A DNA stretch of 64,000 bases from an uncultured virus (IMG/VR IMGVR_UViG_3300025769_000102) (Duplodnaviria > Heunggongvirae > Uroviricota > Caudoviricetes), in the IMG/VR virus record IMGVR_UViG_3300025769_000102, one strand, 5' to 3'. A program made the position numbers and the translations under genes. This document shows, piece by piece, positions 1,196 to 57,351 of the stretch (position 1 is the first letter of the stretch; every line of letters starts with the position of its first letter). The notes beneath the pieces are model-generated. The model did no database searches. It had not been told where the DNA came from and saw only the letters and a list, made by a program, of their open reading frames with translations.

Positions 1196-3160
1196 TTAAT
1201 AAATTGTGTAATGTGTATTTATGTTAGTTTCAATTGCTGCTCTATTACCTGATTGGTCGGATGGGTAAAGTATTAATTCTTGGATAGTACCTTCTAAAAA
1301 ATGTTCTGCACCGTCATTCCTTGCACCGATAACAAAATATTCTGTATTTGAATAAAAATTTGTACTCGCTCTTGTTTGTAAAGCATCTTGATTAACACTA
1401 ATACTGACATTTGAATTAGTATGCTTTGCGAAAAATAAATTTTGAAGCCCATTTAATAAAGTTGTAGGATTAGCAGTTTGACCATCTCCGTTATCTGCGA
1501 AGTATTTTCCAATGTTATAGCAACCAAGTCTAACCCTACCTATTTGGTAAGGATTACCTGTTCCTCCAAATGAATCATAAATAAAGTTAAAATCGAGTTC
1601 ATCTACTATTTTAGAAACTGCAAAAGTTGTAACTGTTCCTCCTACTGATAATTCATTTTGAATATAATCAGTTGTTCCATTAAACTTAACGCTTATCTTA
1701 CCATTCTCATTTATAACTGACCCACTACTTACAATTTGAGGTTGTGCAGATTGTGATACTTGTGTTGCATCATTATTCCCTACACCACTTTGGTCATACC
1801 ATTTAGCAACAAAAACATCTCCACCATTTGCAAAAGAAAGTAAAGAAGCTGTGTCTAAACTACCATCATAAAGGAAACCAATATCTTGAACAGCATTATC
1901 AGAACTTCTTCTAACCTCAATCGCAGCACCTGTATAAGCTGAGTTTAATGCTCGTAACGAATAGGCTGCCGCAGCGTTTGGATAATCATCTAATAAACCT
2001 GTTTGAGAACCGTCCCAATAGATGTTGTAATTTGAGTTTATGTTAGATTCAATACCTGCTTTGTTTTCTGATTGGTCGGAGTTATATGCTATAACCTCTT
2101 GAATTGTACCATTTAAGAATCTTGTTGCTACTTGACTACCTAACACTAAACCATTATTTTCGGTAGTTCCAACGTATGTGTCCGTAGTTCCTACTACTCC
2201 ATCTTTGTAGGAACTCATATTCTTAGAAGAATCAATAAAAGCAGATAACAATCTTTGATTTGCAGTATTCGAATACGATGCTAAATCAGAAGTATAAGTG
2301 ATTATCTCGGATGATGTTACTATTAAATTTCTCTTGACAGTAGTCCTTCTGTCGTTAAAAACTCTTATTGTGTAATTGTTTATTGAGTATTGGGAATGGA
2401 TTACTCCTGCAGATTCCGATACATCATTATTAGATACAGAAAAATAAGATACATCAGTAGTGTTTATAAACGCACTTGTAAAGTTAGATATATTATCATC
2501 TGTCCCATCAAATTTAACCGCAGGTGTACCATTTCTTTCTATGACAATCCCACTACTAACTATTTTAGGTTGTGCAGATTGGCTAATTTGTGCTACATCA
2601 TTCCCTTCTCCACTCTGGTCGTACCACTTAGTTACAAAGACATCTCCACCATCTGCAAAAGAAAGTAAAGAAGTTGTATCTAATTCTCCATTTACAAATC
2701 CAATATTTTGAATAGAGGTTTCACCACCAACTGTTTTTCTTACTTCAATAGCTGGACCTGTGTAATCAGTTCTTAGTTTTCTTAAAGAGTAAGCTGCAGC
2801 AGCATCAGGATATAAGTCTAATAGTAATTGAACTGCGCCAGGTTTTGTTCCACCAACAACAGAGTTGTAAGCCATTATAGTACCACTATCTATTGTCATA
2901 CTTTGGAATGACTCCCCTTGTGGTGCAACTATCAATGCTCCTTGTTTTAATGTAACCCCACTAAGACTCATAGATGCCTTGTAGTCTACATCGTTAGCAG
3001 CTGTTGAAGAATCCCCACCCGTAAGTACAGATATAACTGCATCCTCCTGAACAATAAACTCATTAGAGTTTACATTGGTGTGTGCTGCTACCCCTAAGTA
3101 CTTAGACCCAAATTGGTTCAAGAGTAGTTCCTCGCCTTGTTGATATATTGGGTTTACCAT
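1196..3160 (-). CDS. Tail fibre / receptor-binding protein with two tandem ConA/LamG-like modules
   Basis: Two internal repeats LLD.YP.AAAAYSLR.L...KWYDQSG..N..Q...QP.IV...FDG...G.IQE.I.Y.SDQS.N. Confidence 0.75.
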   Translation of the reverse strand: MVNPIYQQGEELLLNQFGSKYLGVAAHTNVNSNEFIVQEDAVISVLTGGDSSTAANDVDYKASMSLSGVTLKQGALIVAPQGESFQSMTIDSGTIMAYNSVVGGTKPGAVQLLLDLYPDAAAAYSLRKLRTDYTGPAIEVRKTVGGETSIQNIGFVNGELDTTSLLSFADGGDVFVTKWYDQSGEGNDVAQISQSAQPKIVSSGIVIERNGTPAVKFDGTDDNISNFTSAFINTTDVSYFSVSNNDVSESAGVIHSQYSINNYTIRVFNDRRTTVKRNLIVTSSEIITYTSDLASYSNTANQRLLSAFIDSSKNMSSYKDGVVGTTDTYVGTTENNGLVLGSQVATRFLNGTIQEVIAYNSDQSENKAGIESNINSNYNIYWDGSQTGLLDDYPNAAAAYSLRALNSAYTGAAIEVRRSSDNAVQDIGFLYDGSLDTASLLSFANGGDVFVAKWYDQSGVGNNDATQVSQSAQPQIVSSGSVINENGKISVKFNGTTDYIQNELSVGGTVTTFAVSKIVDELDFNFIYDSFGGTGNPYQIGRVRLGCYNIGKYFADNGDGQTANPTTLLNGLQNLFFAKHTNSNVSISVNQDALQTRASTNFYSNTEYFVIGARNDGAEHFLEGTIQELILYPSDQSGNRAAIETNINTHYTIY

Positions 3161-13916: not shown

Positions 13917-14675
13917 ATGAAGAAGTACGATATAGAGACCTATGGTCGCTACGCAATAGACCTTAAGGCATCAAAGCCTAAAGAGATGGAACTGCTAGAA
14001 TATAGCAGAGATGAATTAATAATAAAATTCTTACCACTAGTAGAGAACTTAGCAAGGAAGTTTCCAAGTTCAGAGATAGCAATTGGAGTTCTAAATATAT
14101 GCGACTTAATACAGATTGGTTCTGAAGCATTAGTTCTATCAGTTGATAAGCTAGACTACGAACACCTTAAACTATCTAGGGACGTTGAGAAGACACTAAA
14201 GTCTTTCTTTTCTAAGAGGATAAAGGGTGCAATTAGGAGGCGTATCGACATCAACAGAGGAAGTATGAGGATACCAGAATACAAAAGGAATTTGATGAGG
14301 AAGGAGTCGGGCGACAAGCAGAACGTAGAGATGTTCTTTCGTTCTATCTTTCTAACGATAGATGAGGAGTACAAAGAGAACTCTAACTATACTGCAAACA
14401 TCAACCATCTGCAAGATAAGTCTGAACCCTACAACATAAACATACTTAACGCATACCTAAAGGGTGTTATGAAAAAGCATTTAAGTGGGATAGAGTACGA
14501 GGTACTTAGGCTATCATACGGGCTTGACTGCAATAAGCATACGGGTCTTGAGATAGCAAACGAGTTAGGTATCAAGGGAATAAACAACTTCGTAAGGGTA
14601 TCTGAGATTAAAAAGAAGGCGGTTTTGAAACTAATTGACAATGTTGAGTACAATCAATTCATAGATATACTATAA
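13917..14675 (+). CDS. Phage sigma-70 family factor
   Basis: Region 2 LPLVENLARKF...DLIQIG..AL...VDK; region 4 VLRLSYGL...EIANELG...RVSEIKKKAVLKL. Confidence 0.85.
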   Translation: MKKYDIETYGRYAIDLKASKPKEMELLEYSRDELIIKFLPLVENLARKFPSSEIAIGVLNICDLIQIGSEALVLSVDKLDYEHLKLSRDVEKTLKSFFSKRIKGAIRRRIDINRGSMRIPEYKRNLMRKESGDKQNVEMFFRSIFLTIDEEYKENSNYTANINHLQDKSEPYNINILNAYLKGVMKKHLSGIEYEVLRLSYGLDCNKHTGLEIANELGIKGINNFVRVSEIKKKAVLKLIDNVEYNQFIDIL

Positions 14676-16575: not shown

Positions 16576-16938
16576 ATGAGTGATTTAACAATGACTGGCA
16601 AAATCTTAAAAATATTAGAAGTAGAAAAAGGTACTTCTAAAGCTGGTAAAGATTGGCAGAAAATTAACTTCGTACTATCAACTGGAAGTGAATACAATCC
16701 AGAGGTAGCTTTCCAAATCTTTGGAGAGGAAAAAGTAGCAAACTTTATTAAGTACAATAAGGTTGGTCAAGTTGTAGATGTTAGCTTCAATATATCTAGC
16801 CGTGAATATAATGGAAAGTATTTTCACAATCTAGATGCTTGGAAGATATTTAAGTCAGATGCAGCAGAACCAAATCAAGCCCCACTAAAAGAAGTTGAAT
16901 TAGAAAAAGCTTCAGCAGAAGACGATTTACCATTTTAA
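16576..16938 (+). CDS. Single-stranded DNA-binding protein (DUF3127 type)
   Basis: GTSKAGKDWQK..FV, SREYNGKYF..L.AWKI, acidic DDLPF tail. Confidence 0.85.
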   Translation: MSDLTMTGKILKILEVEKGTSKAGKDWQKINFVLSTGSEYNPEVAFQIFGEEKVANFIKYNKVGQVVDVSFNISSREYNGKYFHNLDAWKIFKSDAAEPNQAPLKEVELEKASAEDDLPF

Positions 16939-16957
16939 ATTAGTACTTTTACATTGT

Positions 16958-17051
16958 AGTTGCAGTCGAAACAAATAGGCAACTTAAGGAAACTATATAA
17001 ACCCTTGCGATGAAATCAGCTTCGACTCTGATGGATTTGCAGGGGTTTTTT
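16958..17051 (+). ncRNA. Structured leader: two hairpins with complementary loops, the second an intrinsic terminator
   Basis: Stem AGTTGC/GCAACT with loop starting AGTCGAA; long stem with loop CTTCGACT followed by T run. Confidence 0.6.
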
Positions 17052-17067
17052 ATTAAACAACAACGAA

Positions 17068-17748
17068 ATGAGTAAGAGATTAGGCTACACATTCTACCCA
17101 AAAGATTGGAGAAGTGATGACAAAGTTATAATGCTTAACGCAGAAGAAAGAGATATGTTTCGCTTCTTTATTGACGAGTGTCACATAAAAAGTTCAGCAA
17201 AACTTGAGTGGAACTTAGGATATCTTCGCAGAATCTTGGGGCATAACAAGCAAAAAGTTGAAAGAATCTTTAAAGTTTTATGTAGTTTTGAGTTAGTTTC
17301 ACGAGAGGGTGATTATGTGATTGTTCCTAGTGTTATCAATAGGTTAGGGTTTATTGAAGAGCAATCTGAGAGGGGTAAATTAAGTCGTATATCATCGAGT
17401 GAAAATGTAACCAAAGAGAAAGAGAAAGAGAAAGAGAAAGAGAAAGGGGAATCAGAAGACCCAAAGGTTAAATTCTTGAAGTGGTTTAATGAATCAAGAA
17501 CTAAACACTTAAAAATACCATCTAACTTTAACACCCTTACCAACCAAGACAGAATTAATCTAAGTGAATTGAGAAAGGATTATAGCAAGGAAGACTTTAA
17601 CAAGGCTATAAAATCTTTTTGTGAGGACAAGTGGTGGGTAGGTAAGAAGAACATAACACCTAAACACTTCTTAGACCAAGACAATTTCGCTAAGTTCTTA
17701 AATGCTTACGAACCTACAAAGACAATCGGACAAAAACTAATGGGATAA
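17068..17748 (+). CDS. Phage replication initiator (DUF1376/YdaU-like N-terminus)
   Basis: FYPKDWRSD..V..L..EER; KE linker; C-terminal WW....ITP..FL...NF.KFLN; precedes helicase. Confidence 0.7.
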   Translation: MSKRLGYTFYPKDWRSDDKVIMLNAEERDMFRFFIDECHIKSSAKLEWNLGYLRRILGHNKQKVERIFKVLCSFELVSREGDYVIVPSVINRLGFIEEQSERGKLSRISSSENVTKEKEKEKEKEKGESEDPKVKFLKWFNESRTKHLKIPSNFNTLTNQDRINLSELRKDYSKEDFNKAIKSFCEDKWWVGKKNITPKHFLDQDNFAKFLNAYEPTKTIGQKLMG

Positions 17749-17750
17749 TT

Positions 17751-18671
17751 ATGATATTAGAAAGAGGATTTGCAGACAAATATTTAGATGATGTAATTAA
17801 CGGAAGGATAAAGCTAGGCTTGGGCTTAGGCTTACCAAAATTTGATGACCACTTCCGATTCAAGCAAGGAGAGTTCACAATCATTAACGGCTTAGATAAC
17901 GTAGGTAAAACAGATTGGCTACTATGGTATTTCTGTGCATTAAGCGTAACACAAGGGCTTAAGTTTTGTGTTTGGAGTGGAGAGAATAAAGCAGGGCAGT
18001 TGGTTAAGAGATTAATACAATGGAAGATTGGTAAGTACATACACAAAGCTGATGAGTTAGATATCTACAACGCTAAAGCTTGGGTTGAGGAGCATTTTAA
18101 GTTCATTGATAACACGGGATTCTACAAGTCAGAAGAACTATTTGCAATGTTTGAAAGCTTAGATGTAAATGCAGTTCTTATTGACCCATACACGGGTATG
18201 AATAGAGACTATACTCACGCTGCTAACTACGACTTCTTAAACGAAAGCAGAAAGTTTGTTAACCAAACTAAAAAGAGTTTGTTTGTAAACACTCACCCTA
18301 ACACGGAGGCAGCGAGAAGAATCTACGGATTAGAACACGAATATTATGGCTATCCTATGCCACCAAGTCGTTCACAAAGTGAAGGCGGTCAACCATTCGC
18401 TAACAGACCTGACAACTTTATAACTATTCACAGACTAATTGGACACCCACTAATGAAGTTTAACACTCAAGTGTACATCAGAAAGGTGAAGGATACGGAA
18501 ACTGGTGGAGAGCCTAACGCAATTGATGACCCAATTATTTTTGAGTACAACAAAGGGCTTGGGTTTGTGAGTGATGGAATAAATATAGTGAATAAGGTCA
18601 TAAGACCCGACCTACAATTCCAACCACTGATACCAAATAATGATTTTGATAGTAACCAAGACCCATTTTAA
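17751..18671 (+). CDS. SF4 (DnaB/T7 gp4-like) replicative helicase without primase domain
   Basis: Walker A GLDNVGKT, SGE, Walker B VLIDPY, HP, DN.ITIHR, KVK. Confidence 0.85.
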   Translation: MILERGFADKYLDDVINGRIKLGLGLGLPKFDDHFRFKQGEFTIINGLDNVGKTDWLLWYFCALSVTQGLKFCVWSGENKAGQLVKRLIQWKIGKYIHKADELDIYNAKAWVEEHFKFIDNTGFYKSEELFAMFESLDVNAVLIDPYTGMNRDYTHAANYDFLNESRKFVNQTKKSLFVNTHPNTEAARRIYGLEHEYYGYPMPPSRSQSEGGQPFANRPDNFITIHRLIGHPLMKFNTQVYIRKVKDTETGGEPNAIDDPIIFEYNKGLGFVSDGINIVNKVIRPDLQFQPLIPNNDFDSNQDPF

Positions 18672-21887: not shown

Positions 21888-22288
21888 CGTGTTATACCAC
21901 GTTTAATTTAAAATATAATAATATGGATATAAATATAAGTGAATCACCTGAAAGATGGGTGATAGTTAAATTGCCAAATAACTACTATAAAGTTTTTGGA
22001 ACTTGGACTGGTGGTTATTTAGATGGTGATAGATGGAAATTAAATTCTGGAATTAGTAAAGTAGAGCAAGACGAAAACTTTTATTATTTTATTGGTTTTA
22101 GTGGTAGTTGTTATAAGTGTCACAAAAAAGGATATGGAACTGCTACATCTTGGGGCTTAAGTGTTTTAAATAAAATAATAGAACAAGGGAACGGACAGAT
22201 TGAATTAATGGAGAATGTTGAAGATTGGGAAAATGTGGTATAACACGCAAATAAGGCGAGTTTCAATTCGCTTTATTTACTGTTATTA
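21888..22288 (+). mobile_element. Integron-cassette-like unit (gene bracketed by GTT.../...AAC inverted cores plus hairpin)
   Basis: CGTGTTATACCAC 21888-21900 and GTGGTATAACACG 22235-22247; hairpin ending GTTAT at 22282. Confidence 0.45.
21923..22243 (+). CDS. Hypothetical protein (cassette gene)
   Basis: P..WVIVK...YYKVFG.W.GGYLDGD.WKLNSGI...G.SGS.Y.C.K. Confidence 0.75.
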   Translation: MDINISESPERWVIVKLPNNYYKVFGTWTGGYLDGDRWKLNSGISKVEQDENFYYFIGFSGSCYKCHKKGYGTATSWGLSVLNKIIEQGNGQIELMENVEDWENVV

Positions 22289-22317
22289 TTATTTTAATTA
22301 TTAAATTTACAAAAATT

Positions 22318-22464
22318 ATGAAAGAAGAAAGAAAAGTTTGGTCACTAGCAATAGGTTTGTACCCTGGAATACTTTTAGGGTTTAGAACCTATGACCAAGG
22401 ACACCACAATGTGCACGTATTATACTTCCCATTCGTGGAGTTTGAGTTAACAATTTATAAATAA
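22318..22464 (+). CDS. Small hypothetical protein (48 aa, not in ORF track)
   Basis: MKEERKVWSLAIGLYPGILLGFRTY...; ATTATG start. Confidence 0.5.
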   Translation: MKEERKVWSLAIGLYPGILLGFRTYDQGHHNVHVLYFPFVEFELTIYK

Positions 22465-24774: not shown

Positions 24775-24869
24775 TACAATATTAATTAGTATATTTGCAT
24801 AGTATACTTTCATTGTGTATTTGTTTTTAATTATGCTATACGATTTGTTTTGTATTGCACATCGTAACT

Positions 24870-24904
24870 AAAAAACGCCAGTAATTAATTTTACTGGCGT
24901 TTTT
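24870..24904. terminator. Bidirectional terminator between convergent early and late arms
   Basis: AAAAACGCCAGTAA / TTACTGGCGTTTTT. Confidence 0.85.
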
Positions 24905-24933
24905 GATTATAGGTAGCTTTAGGTATGGTACGC

Positions 24934-25188
24934 CTATTTCTTTTTGCTCCCTTTCTTTATCTTCCCCACATTCTTTGAGGAAGTTTTCTTTCTCTTAAAG
25001 CTTTCCTTTTCAGACTTCGTTAGTTCACTTGCTGTAGTCGGTGTATCTTTAGATATTCTTTTACTTGGTCTACAAGCAGGGTATCCCTTTCTCTTTTCAC
25101 CCTCAGACCTTCCGCAAGGCTTTCCAGTCTTTATGTCAACCCACTTCTCTTTAAACCATCTGTTTAAGTTTCCTTCAGTCTTTGCCAT
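24934..25188 (-). CDS. Small basic conserved phage protein (DUF5872-like)
   Basis: L.RWFKEKWVD.KTGKPCGR...YPACRP. Confidence 0.7.
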   Translation of the reverse strand: MAKTEGNLNRWFKEKWVDIKTGKPCGRSEGEKRKGYPACRPSKRISKDTPTTASELTKSEKESFKRKKTSSKNVGKIKKGSKKK

Positions 25189-26014: not shown

Positions 26015-29000
26015 TTATTTATTTAGTTTTGGTACTGTGGATTTGTTTAGTTTTGGTACTGTGGATTTGTTTAGTTTTGGTACTGTGGATTTGTTTAGTT
26101 TTGGACCTGTAAACCTGCTTATTTTGTTTGATTTTGAGGTTGCTGCATTTTTCCCTGCACCAAAAAGATATTTATTATATATTTTTCTTAGTGTTTTGTA
26201 TCCAGGAATAACACCACTATTGCCAGCTATTTCAAATGGAATCCTTGTAAGAAGCTCATCTAAGTTTCTATCTCTTGTCTCTTGCCTTTTAGACGCAGTA
26301 GCTCTAGTTATCAACTTCCCTGCTCTGTCTACTGTTTTTACCATAGGGGTATAAGACCCTAAAGAATTAATTACAACATTTGAAATCATATTGTCTTGAG
26401 GTTTTACTTCCATAGGTATCTTAGAAAAAACAATCCCATCCTTATATGCATTATAATCTCCTGAGAATGTTATTCCTTCTCCGTACTCTCTATTTAGCCA
26501 CTCAGCTCCATAGTTTACTGGCATTTGGGCTACATTGCCTAAATATCTACCTAAAGCTAATGTTGCAATAGCACCTAGAACTCCCTTACTAACTTCTTCA
26601 TCTATCTCTTTTTCATCATCTTCATCATCTAGACCCAGTAGAGAAAATACTACAGAAAAAGCCATATCTATTGCCATCTTATACATTGACATACGAATCA
26701 CAGTGGCAGTTAGAAGTAATGCTCCTTGAGACTTAGTTAAGTCCCCCTTACCAATCATTGACTGAACACCTTTTAAAGCAGAGTAGTACTCAAATGTTCT
26801 AAATCTTGACATATACCTGTTTACTGTTTGTAGTGCTTGCTTAATTGCACTTGCATCCCTATCAAGTATGTTTTTTGGTATTGCGTCAAATGGATTGTTT
26901 GATGCTGCGTTATCTATAACTGCTGCATCCCCATCTTCGGAAGCTTTCTGTATTGCACTATCAAATTTATTTCTATAATTTTCATCGTTAGCAATTTTTT
27001 CCCAGTTAGGCTTTTGACCTGTTGACTCTTCAAATGATGCGCTAAATGCCCCTATAAATAATGGCTTTGCAACTAAAGAATCTGGCTTTGTAATCAAGTC
27101 TTCGTTAAACTTCATAAAAGCTTTAGCAGGCTTTTTTAATACGCTAAATACTTTACCAATTCTATCTCCAAAATCTGATGTCATTTGCTCTTGTTGGAAT
27201 AGAGGTGCAGATGCATATAGTCTTTCTTCAATGTCTTTACTACCTCCTTCGTTTTCAGTTAATCTTGCGGTTTGAGTAGAATACAGATTATTCAAAGCCT
27301 TGTTAATAGTATCTTTAGGAACTTTACTTAAAACTTGAAACCCTTCATTAAAGGCTATTGGGTTATAAAGTATTGCGTGTGTAGCATTTGATGCTAATTC
27401 TACAGCAGCCTTTATCGGACCAGCAAGTTGAGCCAAGTATCCAGACCTTCCTAAGAAACTCAAAGCCTTCTCTATAAAAGCCCTATCTTTTGTTACGTTT
27501 TTGTACTCACTTCTTATTATAGAGTCATACACCTCTTCAAGTGAATTAAATAAATCTTTCTGATAGTCAGTTTTTGCATTAGCCTTTAGATTTGCTAACA
27601 CCCTTTTACCTATTTTTACCGCAGGAACCATATAGTAACTAACAGTAGCCTTCCTTGAAATAGCGTTAGCATTATAAATAGGGTCAAAAGATATTGAGTG
27701 AGGCTTACCATTTCTTTGAAACAGAGCCTTACTCTTCATACTGACTGGGTTTGCAAAGTTGTCGGCCAAAGCTTCAAACTCTTCCTCTGAAGTCATTGTA
27801 TTTTGACCCTTAGTAATTCTAGGTAGGTGAACATAATTTTTTCTTAGAACAAACGGAAGCCCTTGTCTTGCTGCATCCATCCGAGCCATTTCTTGTATGT
27901 CGCTATAAACCTTATCAATTAAAGCTAAAGACTTCTTTTCTTTGTCTGTAAAGCTATTAAAAATCTTGTCTGCGTCTATCTCTCCGTCAATAGATAAATA
28001 CTCATCCCTAATTTTTTCTATAGTAGCTCTCTCTCTATCTGAAAGGTCAACCAATGGGTCTTTAAGGGTGTGATTAATCATACTAATTGCAGTAACAAGC
28101 TCTGCGTTTGCTTTTTTACCCCCGTTAGAATCGTACTCCCTTTGAATTTGATAAATCATTATCTTAACCTTCTGGGCGTATCTTTTATTTCTACTTATAT
28201 CTAAAAATGCTCCAGCCCTGTCTAAATCTTTTTTAGCCATCTTCAGCTTCTTTGATGCTGCTTCAAAAGCAACTCCAGTTGGTCTAAAAACATTTTCATA
28301 AATCTTTGTAGATTTAAATCCTTTTGCTGCATCGTTAAGTATCTGGTCAATATTTTTAAGAGGTGTTGACCTAATCCTTTCCATTATTGGTGTAACTTGC
28401 TTATCTCTAGCTCTAAAGATATTCATTATGGTGGTCTTGGCTCTAGTTAAAAGTTTATCTATAAACCCTCTCTCTAAAGTCTCTCCTGTTGCTGTGTTTT
28501 TTGATAGCCTGTCAGCTTTAATAGTGTCTACTGACTGTATTAAATCTGAACCTATATACCCAGCCATAAGCCCTTCTAACCCTCTAACTAACTTTTGTAT
28601 TTCATTAGTGGTTAAGTTCTCAAGGTCTTTAAGTGTTAATGTTTTTACAATCCTAAGTACACTTCTTTCGTCATCATTTAAGTCTTTGAAAGATTTCGGT
28701 ATTCCTTGAATTGCTGCTTCAAAGTCTTCAGTTGCTTCACTTCTTCTTTCTTGAGCCGTCTTTGCCTTGTCCTCCGCTGAAACATTTTCCTTCTTAGTTT
28801 CGTTAATTTGGTCTTTAAATCTTACAAGCAACTCAAACTCTGAGTCTGTGATTTTATTTTCCTTTTTCATCTGGTTAAGATTCTCAAGGACACTCTTGTT
28901 AGGGTCAAGATTATTGTTTATTCTGTCTCTAATTATCTCCTGTGCCAACTTGTAATCAGCTTGGAAACTTGTTATAACTGCCTCAGCAAGAGATTTTAGC

Positions 29001-32000
29001 TCTATTCTTGATGGCATATCAAATTTTTTACTTACGCTTGCTAAAGACGATATTATTTTATCATATTTAACAAGTGTCTTATCTGATAAGTACTGTGGAT
29101 TTATTTTTAATGCATCAACAAGGATGTTGTTAAGCTCCTTTAGTGAACCTATTTTACCAATATTGCTCAAAGCTTTCCCAAGAGTTTTCTTTCTGTTATA
29201 TCTAGCTTGCCTTTTAATATCTCTGCTAATAACATCCATAACCTCAGCAACCTTCTTTTGCATTGTTGCTGGTGTTGCATTCTCAATATTCTTCATTATG
29301 CTTTTGATAGCTCTTTTGGATACGCTATCTAAACCAGAATTTTTTAATATTTCAGCAATCTGTTTTCTTACTTCTTTTCTTGCTTCTTTATTTCTGCTAA
29401 TCTTATTTTTGAATGTCTCTCTAATTCTATTTATTTTAGATTGCATTCTATCTAAAGCTTCTTCTACAAACTCTGAGTATATAAAGTCTGCATCTTCTGC
29501 TCTATCCTTCATAGAATTAAAAAACTCAAGGTATCCTTGTTTTATTATTTCTGCCTCTGTTAAACCACTACCAGTTAATTCATCAGTTAAAAGAGTTGCT
29601 TTCTGCTGACGTATAGATGGAGCGTCTGGGTCAAAGGTGGTGTTAGTGCCATCTGCTAGTTTAGCTTGTGTAGGTTCAAAAGCAACAATCTCTAACCCAT
29701 TATCAAAATCTACACCATCAAAATTTTCTTTTAAAAGAAATTCTTTAAATTCTTTATTTGCTTTCTTTAAAGCGGTTGGTGAGTCATATTTTCTACTACC
29801 ATTTGATGCCCAATTTAAAAGGTCACTCCATTCTTTATTAGTCCCCTTGTATGGGTTTTTTATGTTTAGAAAAAAAGCTCTTGCTTCTGTAAGTTTGTTT
29901 TCTAAAAAAGGGTTTTGCAATCCTCCAATGAATGCGTATTGGTCTGCTGCTGATTTATTGGATGCAAAGAAAAACCCTGCCTTTGCTATTTCAGTATTAG
30001 TTAAAGAGCCAAGTTTCTTTTTGTCAAACACATCAAAATCTGCTGCACTTCCGTGATACACAACCATAGGCTCACCATTCTCGTCCACTACTTTACTCGC
30101 ATTCTTAGGGTCATTCTCCCAATCTCCGAACCAATTCTTGAATGCAGGGGTGCGAACTGTGTCGTATTGTACATCAGTTAAGTTAGATTGGTTACCATTA
30201 GGAGCTAACCTTGTAGTTCTCTGCTGACGGGTTTCTGGTGCGTCTGTAAAAAATATCTGGTCTTCTCTAGCAACATCTTCTGTTTCTTGTAAGGTTGTAT
30301 CTCTACGTTGCTCAGGAGTCATATCCATTCTCTTTTGGACATTCCGTGATTCTACTTCTCCTGCTAATCTTTTGTATTTTTCAAAAGAAGTAAGATTGTT
30401 GTTTTTTAAAGTTTTATAAACAGTAGTTTCATCTACATCTATACCTCTGCTTAACTGTTGCTCTAACACAGAGGCGAGAGTTACTACTGTAGGTGAAGGT
30501 TTCTCTCCGAAAATTTCCTCATATTTTTTTACTGCATCGCTACCATATGTTATATCCCAACCTTTTTCAGGGTTTTTTATTGCAACGTCTTTAGCAAAAG
30601 ACCGAAGAGCATTAACATTGCTAAACCTCAATGTGTCCATTTCATTGTCAAACATTCCAGAATTTCCACCCCTTTCAAAACCTTCAATATCTTGTATTAT
30701 ATGTTGTATTTCGTGCAATAAAACAGATTTTCCAAACTCAACATCTCCATTAAAGATACCATCAGACATAAATATATCCCAACCGTTTCTTCTTTTTAAC
30801 ATCTGAGCCATAGTACCAAAGGAAGCATCAGACGTTAACCCTCTACCAACAAATACTTTCTCGCCAATTTGAGGATATAGTTTTAATAATTCTCCACTTA
30901 CTATATTTTTCAACTTGGTAACATATCCTTGTGCACCTTCCCATTCGTCAGTCCAAGGTGTGACATCCCCTGTGATGGTTATATCATCTATCTCATATCT
31001 CCACTTACCATCAGCACCACGCTCCCATCCTGTTGCTATACGAATAGTTTTAGCGTCTTTATTGTCGGTTTCCATTTGTCTCGCAACGCTAAGGTTATCC
31101 CTTACGTTTTGAGATAGTTCTGCGTTTTCTCCTATAATCTGCTTACGGGTTTCTGGTGCGGTTATATTTTTAACTGCACTTGGAACTGCACCACCATAAG
31201 GAGCTATGCTTGAAGTTTTTTCTGAAATACCTTTGCCTGATATTTTTTCTTTAATATCTGTAGGCATAATTTCTTCAGCGTTCATTTTAATATCTGGCAC
31301 ACCTACTAATTCTCCTAATATATCAGTAGAATAAGTAGAATGTTTGGATTTACCTCCTAATTTAGTTGGTTTTAAAACCAACATTATATCATTCTGAGAA
31401 AAATTATTTTCTTTATAAAAGCCATCCCTTAATTCATTTAAGTCTACAAACCCCCCTAATTCTTGAACTAATTTATGAAATTTAGTATTTGGTTTTTTAA
31501 ATTGTTCATTAACTGCTATTAAAAAAGCTTTTCTTCTAGTACTTTTTCTCATATCGGCCCAGCTATCAAACTCCTCTAAAGTTTCTTTTATTCCTTTAAC
31601 TGGGTTAGTAGCTAATGCTTTTTCCTTAAAAGATTCATAATCTCCTAACTTCTTTTTGTAAATATCAAAAACTTTTTTATTGAATAACTTACTTACTATA
31701 GGAGAACCGCTAATAATAAATATAAAATCAGCCTCTTTTATATTTTTATTTAATTTAACATCATCTAATCCACTAGCCCATATCGCTTTCTTTTTTCTGT
31801 TTTCAGGTTGTAAAGCAAAACTAGGTCCAGCATCCATCTGAACACCTTCATACTCTCCTAATCCCAATTGGTCAGCTACCCAGAACCAAACTTTTTGGTT
31901 CTTTTTAATTATGTCATCTATAAGTGAAATTAAATCTATTTTATCTTTAGAAGTTACTAATGACATTTTGTAAGACTCCTTAAAGTCGATTTGTTTTCTT

Positions 32001-35000
32001 TTTTCAAGAGATGGTTTATTTATTATGGTTGGATTCCCTATAGGAGCAGTTGATTGTAATATATCTATATCAGCTTGCTCAATAACTTCTCCACTTGCAA
32101 CCTTTTGAGATACAACTGATAAAAACTCTATAATATCCTTATCGCTATCTAACATACCTTTTATTGGTATATTAAGAACCTTAGCAAGCTTTCTTAACCA
32201 TTCGTTTATTAATTTCTTAACAGGAGATGAAGTCTCGTAGTTCTCTGCTAGTATACCAAAAAGTTCAGAAATGCTTTCCTCAGATTGAAGTCCGTTAGTA
32301 TACTTACTAGCAAATGCATCAAGTCGTTTAAGTAACTTTGGACTAGCTATCCTTCTAACAGCATCCAGCATATCTGATGTAATTCTCTGTGCCTCTTTGT
32401 TTGTTATTCCATCCTTAAGTAATATTGCGTGAAACACTTCGTGTGCAACAGTTCTTAGGTTTGCTTTTTCAAGGTTTATTTTTATAGTTTTTGTTGCTAG
32501 TACATACTCACCACCATCAATAGGATTACCTCCAGAAGCTTCATACTCTTTTTGAGTTTCGTATACCTCGATGGTAACACCCTTAGCAATATTTGATAAA
32601 GCCTTAATGGCGTTTTTAATCTGACCTCTAATTTTATTTTTTATAGCTTCACTATTAACTTCAGAACTATATTCTTTTTGAGACCTTTTATTTTCTTCTG
32701 ATTTTGATTCTTTTTTATATTTTTTTTCTAAAGATTGTCTTTCTTTTTCTAGTTTATTTTTTTTATCTCCTAACTCATTATTCTTTTTTTCATAAGAATT
32801 TTTAATCTTATCTCTTTTTGCTTCAAGAGCTTTTATTTTTTTTTGCTTTTCTTCCTTTGATAAATTTTTATCATCTTTTATCTTTTCTCTTTCGTCAAAG
32901 TTTTTGTCGGAATCTTCTTTGTACTTTTCCCGTTCTTTTTTTCTTTGAGCTACAACATCAGCAATTTCTTTTGTTTTACTTTCTACTTGAGATTTAGTTT
33001 TAGATTTAGTTTCTACAGTAGGTTTGGCTTTTGTTGTTTTAGTAGGCTTAGATTTTGTTGTTTTAGTAGCTTTAGGTTTTTTAGCTTCAACCTCACTAGT
33101 TTGTTGTGTTGGTTTAGAAACTTCTGTTTTTAAAGAGCTTATATTTCGTGGAAGTTGTATTTCTCCTTTAGACATTGCTACATCACCTTTTCTACCCTCT
33201 AACAAATTATCATATAATGCTTTAGGTATGGCAATTTTATAAACTTTTCTATTGCCCATTGCAGCATACCTCTCTGCCTCAGCTTTAAAAGGAGTAAACC
33301 AAGAGCCTGCGTTTCCTCTAACAGAAAGTGGTAAATTCTCTGTATCCACAACCTTTCCTTCTGCTCTATATACATTAATAAATTCAGTTCCTTCAGGTGT
33401 TTGATTTACATTCTTGTTATATAAAGTTTCATCTATATAATCAATGTTATCAACCTCACTAGTTGGTTGTGTAGTTTCTAAAGCAGCTTCTTCTACAGTA
33501 GGCTCAGTAAATGTTTTTAAAATTTCTTCTACTTCAGAAGTTTTATCATTAAAGATAGCTTGCTCCTTCTCAGTAAGCTCGGTATTATCTTTAACCTTCT
33601 GCGCTAATGAGTTTAATCTTTCATCAGTTACATTCCCATTGTCAACAAAATCTTTGTACTCAGAATCAGTTACATCTATTTCTATTGATGTACTTTCTTC
33701 TTCAATGTTTCCAATTTCTTCTAATCTAGATTGTACTTCTTTAAGTCTATTTGATTCAATCTTAGTTAACGATGCATTATCAACATCCTTTATTTTATCT
33801 TTTAGCTTTTTTTCCTCCATTAAAAGGTTTACAACCTCTGGTTTGTTTTCTTTTGATAGTCTACCAATCTTATTTGCGGTGTTTACAGCCCCCTGAGTGG
33901 CTCTAAAGTTTTCTTTTATAGTATCAGCTTCCTCTTGGGTCATTCGCCCATTAGCGACCTCTATTTCTACTTGCTCGTCAACTATGCTAGATGTGTTTTT
34001 ATTAGAAGCTAAATCTATTGTTGCTTGGTCAATATCTGTGTCTGGGGCAAATACAGATGAAGTATTTTTGTATCCTCCATCTTTGGCTGTTTTATTTGCT
34101 TGAACCCTCCCACTTACAACCTTTAGATTATTGTATGCAGCAGGCCCTACACTTAATGCTGCACCACCAAATTCTCCAATAGTTTCAAGAGCTATCTCTT
34201 TAATATCCATATCTTGACCTATCGCAAACCTAGCCGCAGCTTCACCAGCACCGCCACCTGCACCTTCTATTGCTGTACCACCAACAACAGCACCTGTTTT
34301 TATAGCAGCTCTAGATGCAACGCTTGTCCCTTTTTTTACTGCTTTTAAAGCAGCACCTGTAAATTTATTTGCAATTCCAAAAGTTATATAATCTACAGCT
34401 CCAATTATAGAACCTCTAGCAATAGCTTTTGTCCTTAATTCTGATAGTTTTTCTGGGTCACTTAGTACAGCTTTTACATTTTCAAATGTAAGTTCACCTT
34501 CTATTTCTTCTTGAAGTAGCTCATTAAAAGTTAATGTTGCCTCCATAGTTGCCTGCAAAGCCGCTTGCCCACCTCTAAGTGCAGCAAGAGCAGTAGCCCC
34601 AACAGCAACAGGGGCAGCTATGCCTCCAGTAGCGGCAGTGGCAGCAGCTCCAATACCTCCAGTAACAGCAGCACTAGCCCCAGCACCAGCAACAGTAGCC
34701 GCTATAACCTCTTCGGATTGAAGAGAGCCGACCATAGTTGCTAAAGAACTAGCCATTAACGGAACTGCAATTCCAGGATTTTCTATTGTTGCCATTAGAA
34801 TACCGTAAGCTCCTCCTCCATTTTCGTCAACAGCTTTATCCCAAGCCGCCATTTCATCTTGAATCTTTTGATTTTTGGCTAACTCTTTATTTATTCTTAT
34901 GTATTCATACAACTGCCTATCGGTAGCATCATCGCCTGCAATCATCAAATCCATTGTAGGGTCAACAGCGTCTGATTGAGCTAGTCCTGCATTAATAGCC

Positions 35001-35407
35001 CTATAGGTGTCTCCAATAGCATTAGTAATTACGTTTTTTCCAAACATCTCCTCAATAAGAGTGTTTTCTTCTTGTGATTTAAACGCAGTAAACGGAGCCT
35101 CTTCAACATCAACTTTAGGTTCATCTTTTTTTACAAGTATTCCTTGACTTACATAATCATCAAAGGTGTCAGGATACGCTTCTCTAAGTGCATTTTCTCC
35201 GTAAAGGTTCCCGTCATACTCATAAACCGAACCTACGACTTCTGCCTCAGTGTCTTGTTGAATTTCATCTTCAACAACTTCTTCTGACTCTTTTTTTAAA
35301 AGAATACCTTCAGATACATAATCATCAAATGTATCTGGATATGCTTCTCTAAGTGCAGACTCTGAGTAAGATGTTCCTTCGTATTCGTAAATGTTATCTT
35401 CTTCCAT
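26015..35407 (-). CDS. Giant polyvalent internal virion (ejection) protein with ART-like, zincin, LPD23-like and ART-PolyVal-like domains
   Basis: Hydrophobic Gly/Ala segments; VYRAE..GSWFT..A.RY; AHEVFH; TGWERGADGKWRYEI..LLHEIQH.IQ.IEGF..GG..Y.RLAGEVESR; FKNWFGDW..SKVVDENGEP.VVYHG..GFFF..FLNIKNP..FDGV. Confidence 0.85.
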   Translation of the reverse strand: MEEDNIYEYEGTSYSESALREAYPDTFDDYVSEGILLKKESEEVVEDEIQQDTEAEVVGSVYEYDGNLYGENALREAYPDTFDDYVSQGILVKKDEPKVDVEEAPFTAFKSQEENTLIEEMFGKNVITNAIGDTYRAINAGLAQSDAVDPTMDLMIAGDDATDRQLYEYIRINKELAKNQKIQDEMAAWDKAVDENGGGAYGILMATIENPGIAVPLMASSLATMVGSLQSEEVIAATVAGAGASAAVTGGIGAAATAATGGIAAPVAVGATALAALRGGQAALQATMEATLTFNELLQEEIEGELTFENVKAVLSDPEKLSELRTKAIARGSIIGAVDYITFGIANKFTGAALKAVKKGTSVASRAAIKTGAVVGGTAIEGAGGGAGEAAARFAIGQDMDIKEIALETIGEFGGAALSVGPAAYNNLKVVSGRVQANKTAKDGGYKNTSSVFAPDTDIDQATIDLASNKNTSSIVDEQVEIEVANGRMTQEEADTIKENFRATQGAVNTANKIGRLSKENKPEVVNLLMEEKKLKDKIKDVDNASLTKIESNRLKEVQSRLEEIGNIEEESTSIEIDVTDSEYKDFVDNGNVTDERLNSLAQKVKDNTELTEKEQAIFNDKTSEVEEILKTFTEPTVEEAALETTQPTSEVDNIDYIDETLYNKNVNQTPEGTEFINVYRAEGKVVDTENLPLSVRGNAGSWFTPFKAEAERYAAMGNRKVYKIAIPKALYDNLLEGRKGDVAMSKGEIQLPRNISSLKTEVSKPTQQTSEVEAKKPKATKTTKSKPTKTTKAKPTVETKSKTKSQVESKTKEIADVVAQRKKEREKYKEDSDKNFDEREKIKDDKNLSKEEKQKKIKALEAKRDKIKNSYEKKNNELGDKKNKLEKERQSLEKKYKKESKSEENKRSQKEYSSEVNSEAIKNKIRGQIKNAIKALSNIAKGVTIEVYETQKEYEASGGNPIDGGEYVLATKTIKINLEKANLRTVAHEVFHAILLKDGITNKEAQRITSDMLDAVRRIASPKLLKRLDAFASKYTNGLQSEESISELFGILAENYETSSPVKKLINEWLRKLAKVLNIPIKGMLDSDKDIIEFLSVVSQKVASGEVIEQADIDILQSTAPIGNPTIINKPSLEKRKQIDFKESYKMSLVTSKDKIDLISLIDDIIKKNQKVWFWVADQLGLGEYEGVQMDAGPSFALQPENRKKKAIWASGLDDVKLNKNIKEADFIFIISGSPIVSKLFNKKVFDIYKKKLGDYESFKEKALATNPVKGIKETLEEFDSWADMRKSTRRKAFLIAVNEQFKKPNTKFHKLVQELGGFVDLNELRDGFYKENNFSQNDIMLVLKPTKLGGKSKHSTYSTDILGELVGVPDIKMNAEEIMPTDIKEKISGKGISEKTSSIAPYGGAVPSAVKNITAPETRKQIIGENAELSQNVRDNLSVARQMETDNKDAKTIRIATGWERGADGKWRYEIDDITITGDVTPWTDEWEGAQGYVTKLKNIVSGELLKLYPQIGEKVFVGRGLTSDASFGTMAQMLKRRNGWDIFMSDGIFNGDVEFGKSVLLHEIQHIIQDIEGFERGGNSGMFDNEMDTLRFSNVNALRSFAKDVAIKNPEKGWDITYGSDAVKKYEEIFGEKPSPTVVTLASVLEQQLSRGIDVDETTVYKTLKNNNLTSFEKYKRLAGEVESRNVQKRMDMTPEQRRDTTLQETEDVAREDQIFFTDAPETRQQRTTRLAPNGNQSNLTDVQYDTVRTPAFKNWFGDWENDPKNASKVVDENGEPMVVYHGSAADFDVFDKKKLGSLTNTEIAKAGFFFASNKSAADQYAFIGGLQNPFLENKLTEARAFFLNIKNPYKGTNKEWSDLLNWASNGSRKYDSPTALKKANKEFKEFLLKENFDGVDFDNGLEIVAFEPTQAKLADGTNTTFDPDAPSIRQQKATLLTDELTGSGLTEAEIIKQGYLEFFNSMKDRAEDADFIYSEFVEEALDRMQSKINRIRETFKNKISRNKEARKEVRKQIAEILKNSGLDSVSKRAIKSIMKNIENATPATMQKKVAEVMDVISRDIKRQARYNRKKTLGKALSNIGKIGSLKELNNILVDALKINPQYLSDKTLVKYDKIISSLASVSKKFDMPSRIELKSLAEAVITSFQADYKLAQEIIRDRINNNLDPNKSVLENLNQMKKENKITDSEFELLVRFKDQINETKKENVSAEDKAKTAQERRSEATEDFEAAIQGIPKSFKDLNDDERSVLRIVKTLTLKDLENLTTNEIQKLVRGLEGLMAGYIGSDLIQSVDTIKADRLSKNTATGETLERGFIDKLLTRAKTTIMNIFRARDKQVTPIMERIRSTPLKNIDQILNDAAKGFKSTKIYENVFRPTGVAFEAASKKLKMAKKDLDRAGAFLDISRNKRYAQKVKIMIYQIQREYDSNGGKKANAELVTAISMINHTLKDPLVDLSDRERATIEKIRDEYLSIDGEIDADKIFNSFTDKEKKSLALIDKVYSDIQEMARMDAARQGLPFVLRKNYVHLPRITKGQNTMTSEEEFEALADNFANPVSMKSKALFQRNGKPHSISFDPIYNANAISRKATVSYYMVPAVKIGKRVLANLKANAKTDYQKDLFNSLEEVYDSIIRSEYKNVTKDRAFIEKALSFLGRSGYLAQLAGPIKAAVELASNATHAILYNPIAFNEGFQVLSKVPKDTINKALNNLYSTQTARLTENEGGSKDIEERLYASAPLFQQEQMTSDFGDRIGKVFSVLKKPAKAFMKFNEDLITKPDSLVAKPLFIGAFSASFEESTGQKPNWEKIANDENYRNKFDSAIQKASEDGDAAVIDNAASNNPFDAIPKNILDRDASAIKQALQTVNRYMSRFRTFEYYSALKGVQSMIGKGDLTKSQGALLLTATVIRMSMYKMAIDMAFSVVFSLLGLDDEDDEKEIDEEVSKGVLGAIATLALGRYLGNVAQMPVNYGAEWLNREYGEGITFSGDYNAYKDGIVFSKIPMEVKPQDNMISNVVINSLGSYTPMVKTVDRAGKLITRATASKRQETRDRNLDELLTRIPFEIAGNSGVIPGYKTLRKIYNKYLFGAGKNAATSKSNKISRFTGPKLNKSTVPKLNKSTVPKLNKSTVPKLNK
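26022..26104. repeat. 24-bp tandem repeat x3.5 encoding STVPKLNK
   Basis: TTTAGTTTTGGTACTGTGGATTTG units. Confidence 0.9.
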
Positions 35408-54564: not shown

Positions 54565-54855
54565 TTACTTAGTATTAGCTCTTCCCTCAGCAAACCCTCT
54601 AAACTCTTTCTTTTTAGTTTCTTCTTTAGGTTTTTCGTTTAGTATATCTTCTTCATTTTGTATACGTTGAAGTATTTCAAATGCATCAAATATTGCAAGT
54701 TTTTTAGTTGCTGCTGCATTCTTTAATCTATCCGCTGTTATGTCATCCCCTGAGTCTATGATAGCTTCTTCAGCAACTTTAATAAGTTCAAGAACTGCTT
54801 TTTGCCCAGCTAGGATTATACTCTCTTTCATCTCCTTTACGTTCATAGCTTCCAA
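54565..54855 (-). CDS. Small helical protein upstream of terL (terminase small subunit candidate)
   Basis: Position; ADRLKNAAATKKLAIFDAFEIL. Confidence 0.5.
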   Translation of the reverse strand: MEAMNVKEMKESIILAGQKAVLELIKVAEEAIIDSGDDITADRLKNAAATKKLAIFDAFEILQRIQNEEDILNEKPKEETKKKEFRGFAEGRANTK

Positions 54856-55387
54856 CGATATTAATAAATTTCATACAATATAATAATTCCCCATCTATAA
54901 TAAACTCAAACTCAGATTCAGGTCTAAATGAAACAAGGTCTCCCTCATTTATACCTAAGTTTGTTAGTCCTTTGTTGCCATACTTTAAAATACCTATAAG
55001 TGGTTTTTCTTTTGTTAAAGAAAATATACTATCACTTTGTATTGGCTTTACGAAACAATAATTAAGATGAGTCTTATTTTTTCCATACATATATATTTGC
55101 TCAGGTGAACAAGCATACATATCTTCTTTAATGAAGCTTCTACTATTTTTTTCGTTCCCTCTAATGTCATAGAATCTTCTAAATACGTTATGGTGTACTA
55201 CTACTTTATCTCCAACTTTAATGTCAGTTTTTATAGATAAAGGCAAAGCGACAACTTCTGCCACCTTGCTTACACTTTTAAATTCCTCAATTCTTGTATT
55301 TATAATGAGGTCAACATCGTCAACCTTAACAGTATTATTGTATCGACCCTCTATGGGTTTTACGATAAAATCGTGAATACTTTTCAT
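54788..55387 (-). CDS. Tandem GroES-like domain protein
   Basis: Two repeats of FIVKP/FVKP ... IKVGDKV/INEGDLV. Confidence 0.6.
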   Translation of the reverse strand: MKSIHDFIVKPIEGRYNNTVKVDDVDLIINTRIEEFKSVSKVAEVVALPLSIKTDIKVGDKVVVHHNVFRRFYDIRGNEKNSRSFIKEDMYACSPEQIYMYGKNKTHLNYCFVKPIQSDSIFSLTKEKPLIGILKYGNKGLTNLGINEGDLVSFRPESEFEFIIDGELLYCMKFINIVGSYERKGDEREYNPSWAKSSS

Positions 55388-57075: not shown

Positions 57076-57351
57076 TTACCATTTAACTTTATCCGCCCAG
57101 TAAGCAGCAGACATTTTACCTTTAGCTATATTCTTTCCGTGTCTAGCCTTAAAACTTTTTCTCTTAGCTTTCATCTTAGCAGACTCTCCAGCTTTTGGCT
57201 TTCCTGCCGTACTAGCACCCTGCTGACCAAACCTAATTATCTTTTCTTTTCCACCCTCACAAGCCTTTACAACGTGAGACTTCTTAGGGTGTCCAGATGT
57301 TCTCTTTGGCTTATTACAAGCCATATCTTTCTTACTTACCTTCTTTGCCAT
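57076..57351 (-). CDS. Small basic conserved phage protein
   Basis: KKSHVVKAC..GKEKIIRFGQQG...RKSFKARH...SAAYWA. Confidence 0.75.
   Translation of the reverse strand: MAKKVSKKDMACNKPKRTSGHPKKSHVVKACEGGKEKIIRFGQQGASTAGKPKAGESAKMKAKRKSFKARHGKNIAKGKMSAAYWADKVKW

Follow-up and report, generated by a model that had tools for sequence, protein, structure and literature searches.

Lambdoid phages control their late genes from a constitutive promoter, PR', with a short leader that is terminated at tR' and with antitermination by Q. The CI RNA of phage P4, in which seqB pairs with seqA and seqC, and the C4 RNAs of P1 and P7 are processed, trans-acting RNAs with two target sites; they belong to temperate elements, and Rfam holds a C4 family. 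In Stx phages, the terminated PR' leader is itself reported to be a small RNA, StxS (PMC7547250). The present analysis concerns a 64,000-nucleotide (nt) stretch of DNA from an uncultured virus of the Caudoviricetes (IMG/VR record IMGVR_UViG_3300025769_000102), the whole of which is called the window here, and in particular a leader at positions 16938-17051 that lies in front of putative replication genes. An earlier annotation made from the letters alone (the original prediction) had proposed that two hairpins of this leader, the second one a terminator, expose complementary loops and gate the genes behind them. On comparative evidence, 16938-17051 belongs to a large class of structured leader RNAs that is found in uncultured phages and has hitherto not been catalogued, and its structure can be regarded as good as proven.

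Loop-loop complementarity in the leader family

All coordinates given by the original prediction for the box, hairpins, loops, T run and ATG are exact (Table 1). The two hairpins that it drew are both present in the minimum-free-energy and in the centroid structure computed by RNAfold (-28 kcal/mol, z = -2.63; 3 of 200 shuffles fold equally well), and their stems covary in relatives. In the window, the loop-loop duplex alone has a predicted energy of -8.3 kcal/mol and hairpin 2 alone of -21.6 kcal/mol. The reality of the element is decided by recurrence and covariation in relatives rather than by this single instance.

Relatives were collected from viral contigs with the search pattern TGAA-N16-22-GGATTT-N1-2-AGGGGTTTT, which describes three parts of hairpin 2, namely its internal loop, the 3' strand of its outer stem and four T, and is silent on hairpin 1 and on both loops. 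This scaffold pattern matched at least 120 viral-contig loci. Including the window, 121 loci were parsed, 117 had full flanks, and 85 distinct leaders were kept; L068, L091, L101, L102 and L140, which have no hairpin 1, were dropped as chance matches. Loop complementarity in homologous leaders was the point on which the original prediction had staked itself, and a Watson-Crick loop-loop run is kept in 85/85 distinct leaders (6 nt, n = 1; 7 nt, n = 25; 8 nt, n = 55; 9 nt, n = 3; 10 nt, n = 1), with many compensatory changes. The loops form 28 loop-pair classes, in which the mean run is 7.6 nt for cognate loops versus 3.8 nt for non-cognate class pairs, and when the letters of loop 2 were shuffled across the 28 classes, only 15 of 5600 shuffles reached a run of at least 7 nt. 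Likewise, the mean loop-duplex energy is -11.8 kcal/mol for cognate loops versus -3.5 kcal/mol between different classes. In the near-identical neighbours L039 and L040, the differences are matched double changes.

The geometry of the contact is as regular as its pairing. The loop-loop helix is flush with both stems, running from the first nt of loop 1 to the last nt of loop 2, in 72/85 leaders; the linker 5' of the helix in loop 2 measures 1-3 nt in 83/85 leaders (1-2 nt in 77), and an A-rich tail of 5-8 nt, AYYAUA(R), follows 3' of the helix in loop 1. The tail would be long enough to span the groove of the loop-loop helix. The stem of hairpin 1 has 4-8 base pairs (bp; 5-7 bp in 82/85) and its loop 13-15 nt in 84/85, and the spacer together with the outer 5' strand amounts to 22-27 nt in 85/85 leaders. 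Watson-Crick pairing, compensatory changes and linkers that permit stacking together point to a contact of the kissing-loop or pseudoknot type. The invariance of UGAA/GGAU in the 85-leader set was imposed by the search pattern and is thus no evidence; the same internal loop is also found in L007, L008 and L013, which were found via protein.

Hairpin 2 has a stable stem with a CCC/GGG base followed by six U and is therefore predicted to be an intrinsic terminator. This part of the original prediction is borne out by the family, in which the stem base is G+C-rich and the U run has 6-8 nt in 82/85 leaders, though the pattern demanded just four T. Hairpin 2 was missing from a simple terminator scan, since its compound stem and loop lie outside the scan rules. 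A leader peptide that would start at AUGAA in the internal loop was also considered; the frame has 21 codons in the window versus 4 codons in L146, and the candidate was rejected on these two sequences only.

Covariation and strand

Covariation was measured in alignments of these leaders. Covariance model R1, built from nested helices only, gave one match per source in 85/85 sources, and these matches make up alignment A5, which is not fitted to the loop-loop helix. In A5, columns 47-53 and 108-114, which hold the two loop strands, pair in 89.6% of cells, and 6/7 pairs change on both sides. Its whole-structure covariation score is 0.511 versus 0.181 in shuffles (0/500 reach it) and falls to at most 0.160 with the partners slid. 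Both-side changes are also seen in 5/5 modelled pairs of hairpin 1 and in 4/5 inner-stem pairs. In the MAFFT alignment A3, taken in its majority register, 73.9% of loop-loop cells pair versus 53.0% in shuffles, the covariation score is 0.387 versus 0.132 (0/500 shuffles reach it), and 7/8 pairs change on both sides. Alignments A2, A3 and A5 place the window's subgroup (15-nt loop 1, 8-nt loop 2) out of register, so that it is counted as unpaired; the unpaired rows of A5, 10-13 per pair, come mostly from this subgroup, for which pairing was shown by anchored counts. RNAalifold on A2 recovered hairpin 2 alone. Taken together, the comparative sequence data indicate that the loop-loop pairing is real.

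The outer stem of hairpin 2 keeps U-G wobbles at fixed positions, one pair being UG in 80/86 and CG in 5. On the opposite strand, these wobbles would be A-C mismatches, and the structure therefore belongs to the sense strand. In close relatives of the window, the two changes inside hairpin 2 are A17001G and C17008U, and pairing is kept as G-U and U-G.

The original prediction had also allowed for a riboswitch-like RNA. An alternative fold was not borne out: when an anchored alignment of 74 distinct rows was scanned for mutual information, the hairpin stems and the loop-loop pairs alone came up, and no antiterminator pairing. An alternative pairing of the spacer with the outer strand, seen by eye, comprises at most 4 bp and found no support in that scan.

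Relatives beyond the search pattern and controls

The same design recurs in leaders that the scaffold pattern does not describe. A query with the protein encoded directly behind the leader, the putative initiator, returned 14 viral-contig loci. The three close loci show hardly any change in the intergenic stretch of 128 nt, whereas the upstream gene for a single-stranded DNA-binding protein (SSB) is rewritten at its end. Relatives of the putative initiator at 31-42% identity have the same design upstream with unrelated loop letters, namely TGTGCG / CGCACA in L011, CTCTCAC / GTGAGAG in L013, CATCCTAC / GTAGGATG in L007, GGCTTCACA / TGTGAAGCC in L008, GGTGCAT / ATGCACC in L005 and CTGGAAG / CTTCCAG in L012. 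The exact 18-nt inner hairpin of the window occurs in 18 viral contigs, of which 15 are window-like and 3 (L022, L024 and L028) are built on a different scaffold. In these three, the genes lie on the other strand relative to the 18-nt hairpin; read in the sense of the genes, the architecture is the same, with a -7 box, a hairpin ATCAG-AGTCGAAG-CTGAT, a spacer that holds one more hairpin, a terminator with CTTCGAC in its loop and an ATG about 15 nt later. This ATG opens a helicase gene in L028 and, in L022, a small open reading frame (ORF) that is followed by DUF1376-like and dnaB-like genes.

A profile of the N-terminal domain of the putative initiator found 137 viral-contig relatives; the best 80 of the 137 were kept, and 62 distinct upstream regions of the more distant ones were examined with a generic detector. 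In these 62 regions, an upstream complement of at least 7 nt exists for 21 of 93 terminator loops, versus 3.6 per non-cognate permutation, and 16 of the 21 complements lie inside a local hairpin loop, versus 1.5 in non-cognate permutations. The distant regions contribute new loop words, e.g., GTGAGATTT, GTGGTGG, GTAACGG and GATCCA.

Most genes downstream of the leaders encode putative replication organisers of the DUF6291, DUF1376-like or a similar type. At least 8 different genes stand behind the loop word CATCCTAC, a DUF6291-type gene follows at least 5 different loop words, and the loop word does not closely track the upstream gene either. This independence of the neighbouring genes speaks for a structural role of the helix and against its sequence-specific recognition by the product of a gene next to it. 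Several side observations concern these neighbours. In L049, L050, L052, L054, L069, L075, L076 and L088, the upstream gene encodes a protein of about 150 amino acids (aa) with a helix-turn-helix-like motif, ...NHAT(I/V)..., which we take to recall DnaA domain IV. In L092, L135 and L145, genes for HNH/NUMOD4 and GIY-YIG homing endonucleases stand directly behind the leader, which fits a leader placed at a recombination-prone module junction. In L007, positions 1057-1147 hold a box resembling a promoter, then a hairpin and a plain terminator that lies 8 nt ahead of an ATG, with no loop complementarity (R1 E = 0.28); this suggests that these phages make repeated use of the order promoter, terminator, gene, with or without a kissing contact.

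As a control, the same scaffold pattern was searched in cellular genomes. In 103 of the 120 matches listed, the best complement in the 53 nt upstream is 2-5 nt long; the others have 6 nt (n = 13), 7 nt (n = 3) or 8 nt (n = 1), and none of these 17, which were inspected, has the promoter-hairpin-terminator layout. No prophage copy was seen among these first 120 cellular-genome matches, a set of which 103 were scored only and which cannot prove the absence of prophage copies. Against 50,697 cultured or deposited phage records, neither the window region (blastn) nor the putative initiator of the window (tblastn) gave a match, and two consensus leaders matched these records through the promoter box alone. 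The original prediction could not assign the leader to a known family, and the search of Rfam 15 agrees: there are 0 matches at gathering score in the whole window, C4 antisense RNA, phage pRNA, Flavo-1 and the riboswitch classes included. At E-values up to 10, the region 16800-17200 gave six weak unrelated matches (snoRNAs, TUG1, a frameshift element), none of which came near its gathering score. Full-text searches of the literature, subscription journals not being covered, turned up no account of the element.

Promoter and host

Bacteroidota have an unusual promoter type and do not rely on Shine-Dalgarno-led initiation; the consensus of their sigma-A promoters is TTG near -33 and TAnnTTTG at -7. 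An exact TAnnTTTG stands 2-6 nt before hairpin 1 in 73/85 leaders and is one letter off in the other 12, the window included. The -7-like box of the original prediction is thus homologous to a consensus element in its relatives, while the copy in the window deviates from it. The consensus box with its flank (…AATAATTATTATATTTGT…) also matches intergenic promoter positions in cultured Flavobacterium phages, where the order is the ordinary one of terminator, promoter and gene. From the promoter type, the host is likely to belong to the Flavobacteriia or to other Bacteroidota.

In the early block on the plus strand of the window, boxes of the form AATTAnTAnnTTT[AG] occur at 11103, 13275, 15227, 16938, 22296 and 24784, each shortly before a gene or RNA. 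Two further plus-strand copies lie in a repeated segment (1052 and 62468), and the box has no minus-strand match in the window. The boxes at 11103 (before the gene at 11157) and at 16938 have 17/18 letters in common and both end in TTTA, not in the consensus TTTG; boxes with this ending may form a second promoter class. The order promoter, hairpin, terminator and gene is found only at 16938-17067, and the junction at 22249-22330 has the order terminator, promoter and gene. A sigma-like protein is encoded at 13917-14675.

The box at 24784 opens a second structured unit, 24784-24908 (+). Here, the consensus box AATTAGTATATTTGCA is followed by about 100 nt that are strongly folded (-47.1 kcal/mol, z = -5.3 for 24775-24960) and end in a 14-bp hairpin between an A run and a U run, which could terminate transcription bidirectionally. 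The unit lies between the convergent early and late blocks, has no plus-strand gene behind it and shows no loop-loop complementarity; it is a candidate stand-alone small RNA.

Genomic setting

The window, a tailed-phage genome, has its early block on the plus strand at about 11-25 kb; the minus strand carries the terminase, portal and structural genes, endolysins, a 3130-aa ORF and GroEL/GroES-like genes. The SSB gene closes an upstream co-directional operon, and no terminator lies in the sequence between this gene and the leader. Genes for an ERF recombinase and an exonuclease (Pfam/PHROG) are also located upstream. Placed by the original prediction before replication genes, the leader indeed stands directly in front of genes for a putative replication organiser and a putative helicase. 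The first of these proteins has no Pfam or PHROG match of its own, and 'initiator' can be applied to it as a putative label only; in alignment A4, which joins it with five relatives, 2/5 relatives match DUF1376 (best E 6.2e-5). The genes from 17068 onwards may reasonably be taken as a replication module. Among the 63 ORFs of the window (searched against PHROGs, 13 of them also against Pfam), no integrase, repressor, lysogeny gene or antiterminator was annotated, and most early ORFs have no family at all.

Table 1. The leader element of the window and the genes on either side of it.
Feature	Position	Strand	Remarks
Promoter-like box AATTAGTACTTTTA	16938-16951	+	Bacteroidota-type -7 element, 1 letter off TAnnTTTG; ends 6 nt 5' of hairpin 1
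-7-like box TACTTTTA	16944-16951	+	7/8 letters of TAnnTTTG
Hairpin 1	16958-16984	+	6-bp stem AGTTGC 16958-63 / GCAACT 16979-84; 15-nt loop; RNAfold
K strand AGUCGAA (AGTCGAA), first 7 nt of loop 1	16964-16970	+	Partner is 17021-17027
A-rich 3' tail of loop 1, ACAAAUAG	16971-16978	+	Relatives keep AYYAUA(R)
Single-stranded spacer UAAGGAAACUAUAU	16985-16998	+	Length tightly conserved in family
Hairpin 2, putative two-tier intrinsic terminator	16999-17048	+	12-bp outer stem 16999-17010 / 17037-17048
Internal loop of hairpin 2, 4x4	TGAA 17011-14 / GGAT 17033-36	+	UGAA/GGAU in RNA
Inner stem of hairpin 2, 5 bp	ATCAG 17015-19 / CTGAT 17028-32	+	8-nt apical loop CTTCGACT
K' strand UUCGACU (TTCGACT), last 7 nt of hairpin 2 apical loop	17021-17027	+	Exact complement of AGTCGAA
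Terminator U run, six T	17046-17051	+	ATG at 17068, 16 nt further
Upstream gene, DUF3127-type single-strand DNA-binding protein, C-terminus ...EDDLPF	16576-16938	+	Pfam DUF3127 E 6.7e-23; PHROG 4932 SSB E 1.5e-27
First gene behind leader, 226-aa putative replication organiser	17068-17748	+	N-terminal GYTFYPKDW motif
Second gene, RecA-fold replicative helicase-like	17751-18671	+	PHROG 18375 DNA primase/helicase E 9e-29; AAA_25 and DnaB_C weak

Some features of the window lie apart from the leader. The 3130-aa ORF (26015-35407, minus strand) matches only PHROGs of unknown function. The phage encodes a GroEL-like and two GroES-like proteins (60194-61732, 59934-60194 and 54788-55387, all on the minus strand). 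Two 200-nt segments, 1001-1200 and 62417-62616, are identical at 187/200 positions and adjoin paralogous pairs of genes, for endolysins (240-686 and 57351-57812) and for virion structural proteins (1196-3160 and 62609-63508); the repeat is a duplicated, diverged module rather than a genome wrap-around.

Proposed function and rival explanations

The element probably serves as a cis-acting attenuation gate on the replication module. This role follows from its position, i.e., from the order promoter, hairpin, terminator and gene, and from its single copy: covariance model R1 finds the leader once in the 64-kb window (16919-17055, 86.6 bits) and once per related locus. The distance from the U run to the ATG is 13-48 nt in 85/85 leaders, which leaves no room for another promoter. 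Because the terminator sits between the only nearby promoter, or the upstream operon, and the first gene, the replication genes would be transcribed only via read-through of hairpin 2. Transcription from the box, termination and gating are what we infer from the arrangement of the sequence, and for the loop-loop pairing itself three effects were considered: it may strengthen termination, weaken it or mark the site for a factor.

In the proposed mechanism, transcription would start at the leader's own box or arrive from the upstream operon and would then meet hairpin 2. The first 7-9 nt of loop 1 would pair with the last 7-9 nt of the terminator apical loop, about 35 nt downstream, and the loop-loop helix, which abuts both stems with no unpaired nt, would stack between hairpin 1 and the inner terminator stem to give one rod. 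By analogy with established pseudoknot geometry, zero-length junctions combined with one short and one long linker would be a requirement for such coaxial stacking. The UGAA/GGAU internal loop and the length-conserved spacer would let the molecule close on itself; the spacer may achieve this only if the internal loop bends, and a tandem G-A arrangement is possible there. The output would be an abundant terminated RNA of about 95 nt and a limited or factor-dependent read-through fraction.

A further idea, which at present seems rather unlikely, is a new kind of termination switch without a described counterpart, operated by the loop-loop helix itself. Hairpin 1 would be ready before the terminator loop emerges, and the loops could pair first, so that the 5' strand of the terminator stem is held in a ring; the lower stem would then be hindered from zipping up at the U run, or would be permitted to do so with the help of a factor. 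Polymerase entry would depend on the RNA fold itself, or else on a reader of the variable loop 'address', be it a phage protein or a competing leader RNA. If true, such a mechanism of antitermination or copy-number sensing would be widespread and specific to Bacteroidota phages.

Several observations weigh against the gate as the function of the element. The generic scan of distant relatives left 72 of 93 terminator loops without an upstream complement of at least 7 nt, and the initiator relatives L006, L010 and L014 have no leader at all. The element is accompanied by varied genes on both sides and thus resembles a portable cassette that is not bound to one initiator. On the promoter side, the window's own -7 box departs from the consensus, like those of 12/85 leaders, and a TTG at a -33-like distance (17-23 nt upstream of the box) is present in only 23/73 leaders with an exact box. 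The mutual-information scan yielded no conserved antiterminator pairing, no known antiterminator family was found among the 63 ORFs, and nothing indicates how read-through would be regulated. Finally, all relatives are metagenomic, and blastn found none in the 50,697 phage records.

Four other explanations were weighed against the gate. The leader may instead be a stand-alone regulatory small RNA, an approx. 95-nt transcript that would act in trans via its spacer and loop-1 tail, with a loop-loop helix that merely compacts or stabilises it and with downstream genes fed by leak-through. A strong consensus promoter that abuts a 5'-terminal hairpin, together with a 3' terminator, is the classic layout of a small RNA; the unpaired spacer and loop-1 tail are conserved, and the unit at 24784-24908 shows a second promoter and terminator with no gene behind them. 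The terminated PR' leader of Stx phages, StxS, which is reported to act as a small RNA (PMC7547250), offers a precedent. However, no target was identified: the sole other 8-mer match to the loop CTTCGACT in the window, at 55709, lies within a coding region, and its number is within chance expectation. Moreover, the terminator is fixed directly before the first replication gene, where no second promoter is possible, and would control those genes regardless. This explanation is considered quite unlikely, and it can coexist with the gate. A related possibility is control of dosage or immunity by kissing in trans, as in P4 CI, P1/P7 C4 or plasmid copy-control RNAs. Terminated leaders would pair with nascent leaders and alter their termination, thereby sensing copy number or excluding related superinfecting phages, and the variable loop letters would be a specificity code. 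The many loop classes, which differ between phages with near-identical flanks (L033, L039 and L040 share the upstream gene), would suit such a code, and the position before replication genes parallels that of P4 and plasmid rep leaders. Yet both partners reside in one short RNA, whose linker and spacer lengths suit an intramolecular fold that would occupy the loops. The classes are not orthogonal either, as many are one pair apart and non-cognate runs of 7-9 nt occur in 55/756 class pairs, and the stems vary about as much as the helix (16 stem types, 21 inner-stem types), as drift under structural constraint predicts. Kissing in trans is accordingly given a poor chance.

The complementary words might also act at the level of DNA, as a protein-bound inverted repeat (operator or origin) or as single-stranded DNA hairpins that serve as a priming signal. 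An inverted repeat would yield the same complementarity, replication genes are adjacent, and two scaffolds carry the 18-nt inner hairpin in opposite orientations with respect to the genes. A DNA element would leave unaccounted that each word sits exactly in a hairpin loop, flush with covarying stems, that the G-U wobbles of the stems are mismatches on the other strand, and that the structure is set between a promoter box and a U run; nor does the word track the downstream protein, as noted above for CATCCTAC. This explanation is therefore considered highly improbable, although the sense strand may also form the structure as single-stranded DNA. The remaining one, an ordinary terminator after the SSB gene with a chance loop match, starts from the fact that hairpin 2 makes a good terminator, which also ends the upstream operon. 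It is contradicted by covariation in 85/85 relatives and in other scaffolds, and the 17 cellular matches with a complement of at least 6 nt (of the 120 listed) lack the design; its probability is negligible.

The significance of the element lies in several directions. Gene regulation in Bacteroidota phages is almost unexplored, and Rfam has no entry for this compact class of RNAs, for which comparison gives very strong support, with at least 120 loci, 28 loop classes and other scaffolds besides. In this class, a tertiary contact in which the loop of a putative intrinsic terminator takes part can be tested directly, and the natural set of matched loop pairs lends itself to studying effects on termination, RNA stability and phage-phage specificity. 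In addition, a covariance model is ready for annotating uncultured phage genomes.

Comparison with known systems

The arrangement in which the loop of a terminator takes part in a tertiary contact was not found in the literature searched, and each of the described systems shares some of its traits. Closest in function is the lambdoid PR'-tR'/Q system. Common to both is the order promoter, short terminated leader and gene block; the block needs read-through, and the terminated leader accumulates, or here would accumulate, as a by-product. Unlike PR'-tR', the block in question is a putative replication module, the host is probably a member of the Bacteroidota, and the terminator loop itself takes part in a conserved tertiary contact; the scan of 63 ORFs brought up no Q-like protein, and no qut-like site was identified. 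In position, the leader resembles lambda nutR-tR1/N before O and P, where a hairpin and a terminator lie between the early promoter and the replication genes. However, tR1 is Rho-dependent, and boxB is bound by N without pairing to the terminator, whereas here a predicted intrinsic terminator pairs with the upstream hairpin.

The original prediction had likened the leader to P4 CI and P1 C4. The likeness holds in so far as short complementary words lie in one leader upstream of replication or anti-repressor genes and are tied to premature termination. It does not extend to membership, since the leader has one loop pair in one fold of about 95 nt, no Rfam C4 match was found at E-values up to 10, and neither integrase, repressor nor other lysogeny genes were seen among the 63 ORFs. 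HK022 put likewise has two hairpins close to its promoter, through which it acts on RNA polymerase in cis, but it has no terminator and no loop-loop pairing. In phi29 pRNA, the loops covary, but they pair between molecules for the packaging ring, far from any terminator. Rfam gave no match to phage pRNA or put.

In plasmid copy control (ColE1 RNA I/II, R1 CopA/CopT, pT181 and pIP501), loop-loop helices of 6-8 bp govern replication-initiator genes, and in systems of the pT181 type the output is an intrinsic terminator, as is proposed here. The partners in the plasmid systems are sense and antisense transcripts, whereas both loops of the phage leader are in one RNA and on one strand, with a U run on the sense side only. 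An intramolecular loop-loop contact that organises a terminator-ended leader is known from riboswitches, namely the L2-L3 contact of purine and the L5-L13 contact of cobalamin riboswitches. The phage leader shows neither an alternative fold (mutual information, 74 rows) nor an evident ligand pocket, by which riboswitches and classical attenuators would be recognised. The riboswitch contact is confined to the aptamer, and an alternative fold is in competition with the terminator; in the leader at 16938-17051, by contrast, the loop of the putative terminator is itself the pairing partner.

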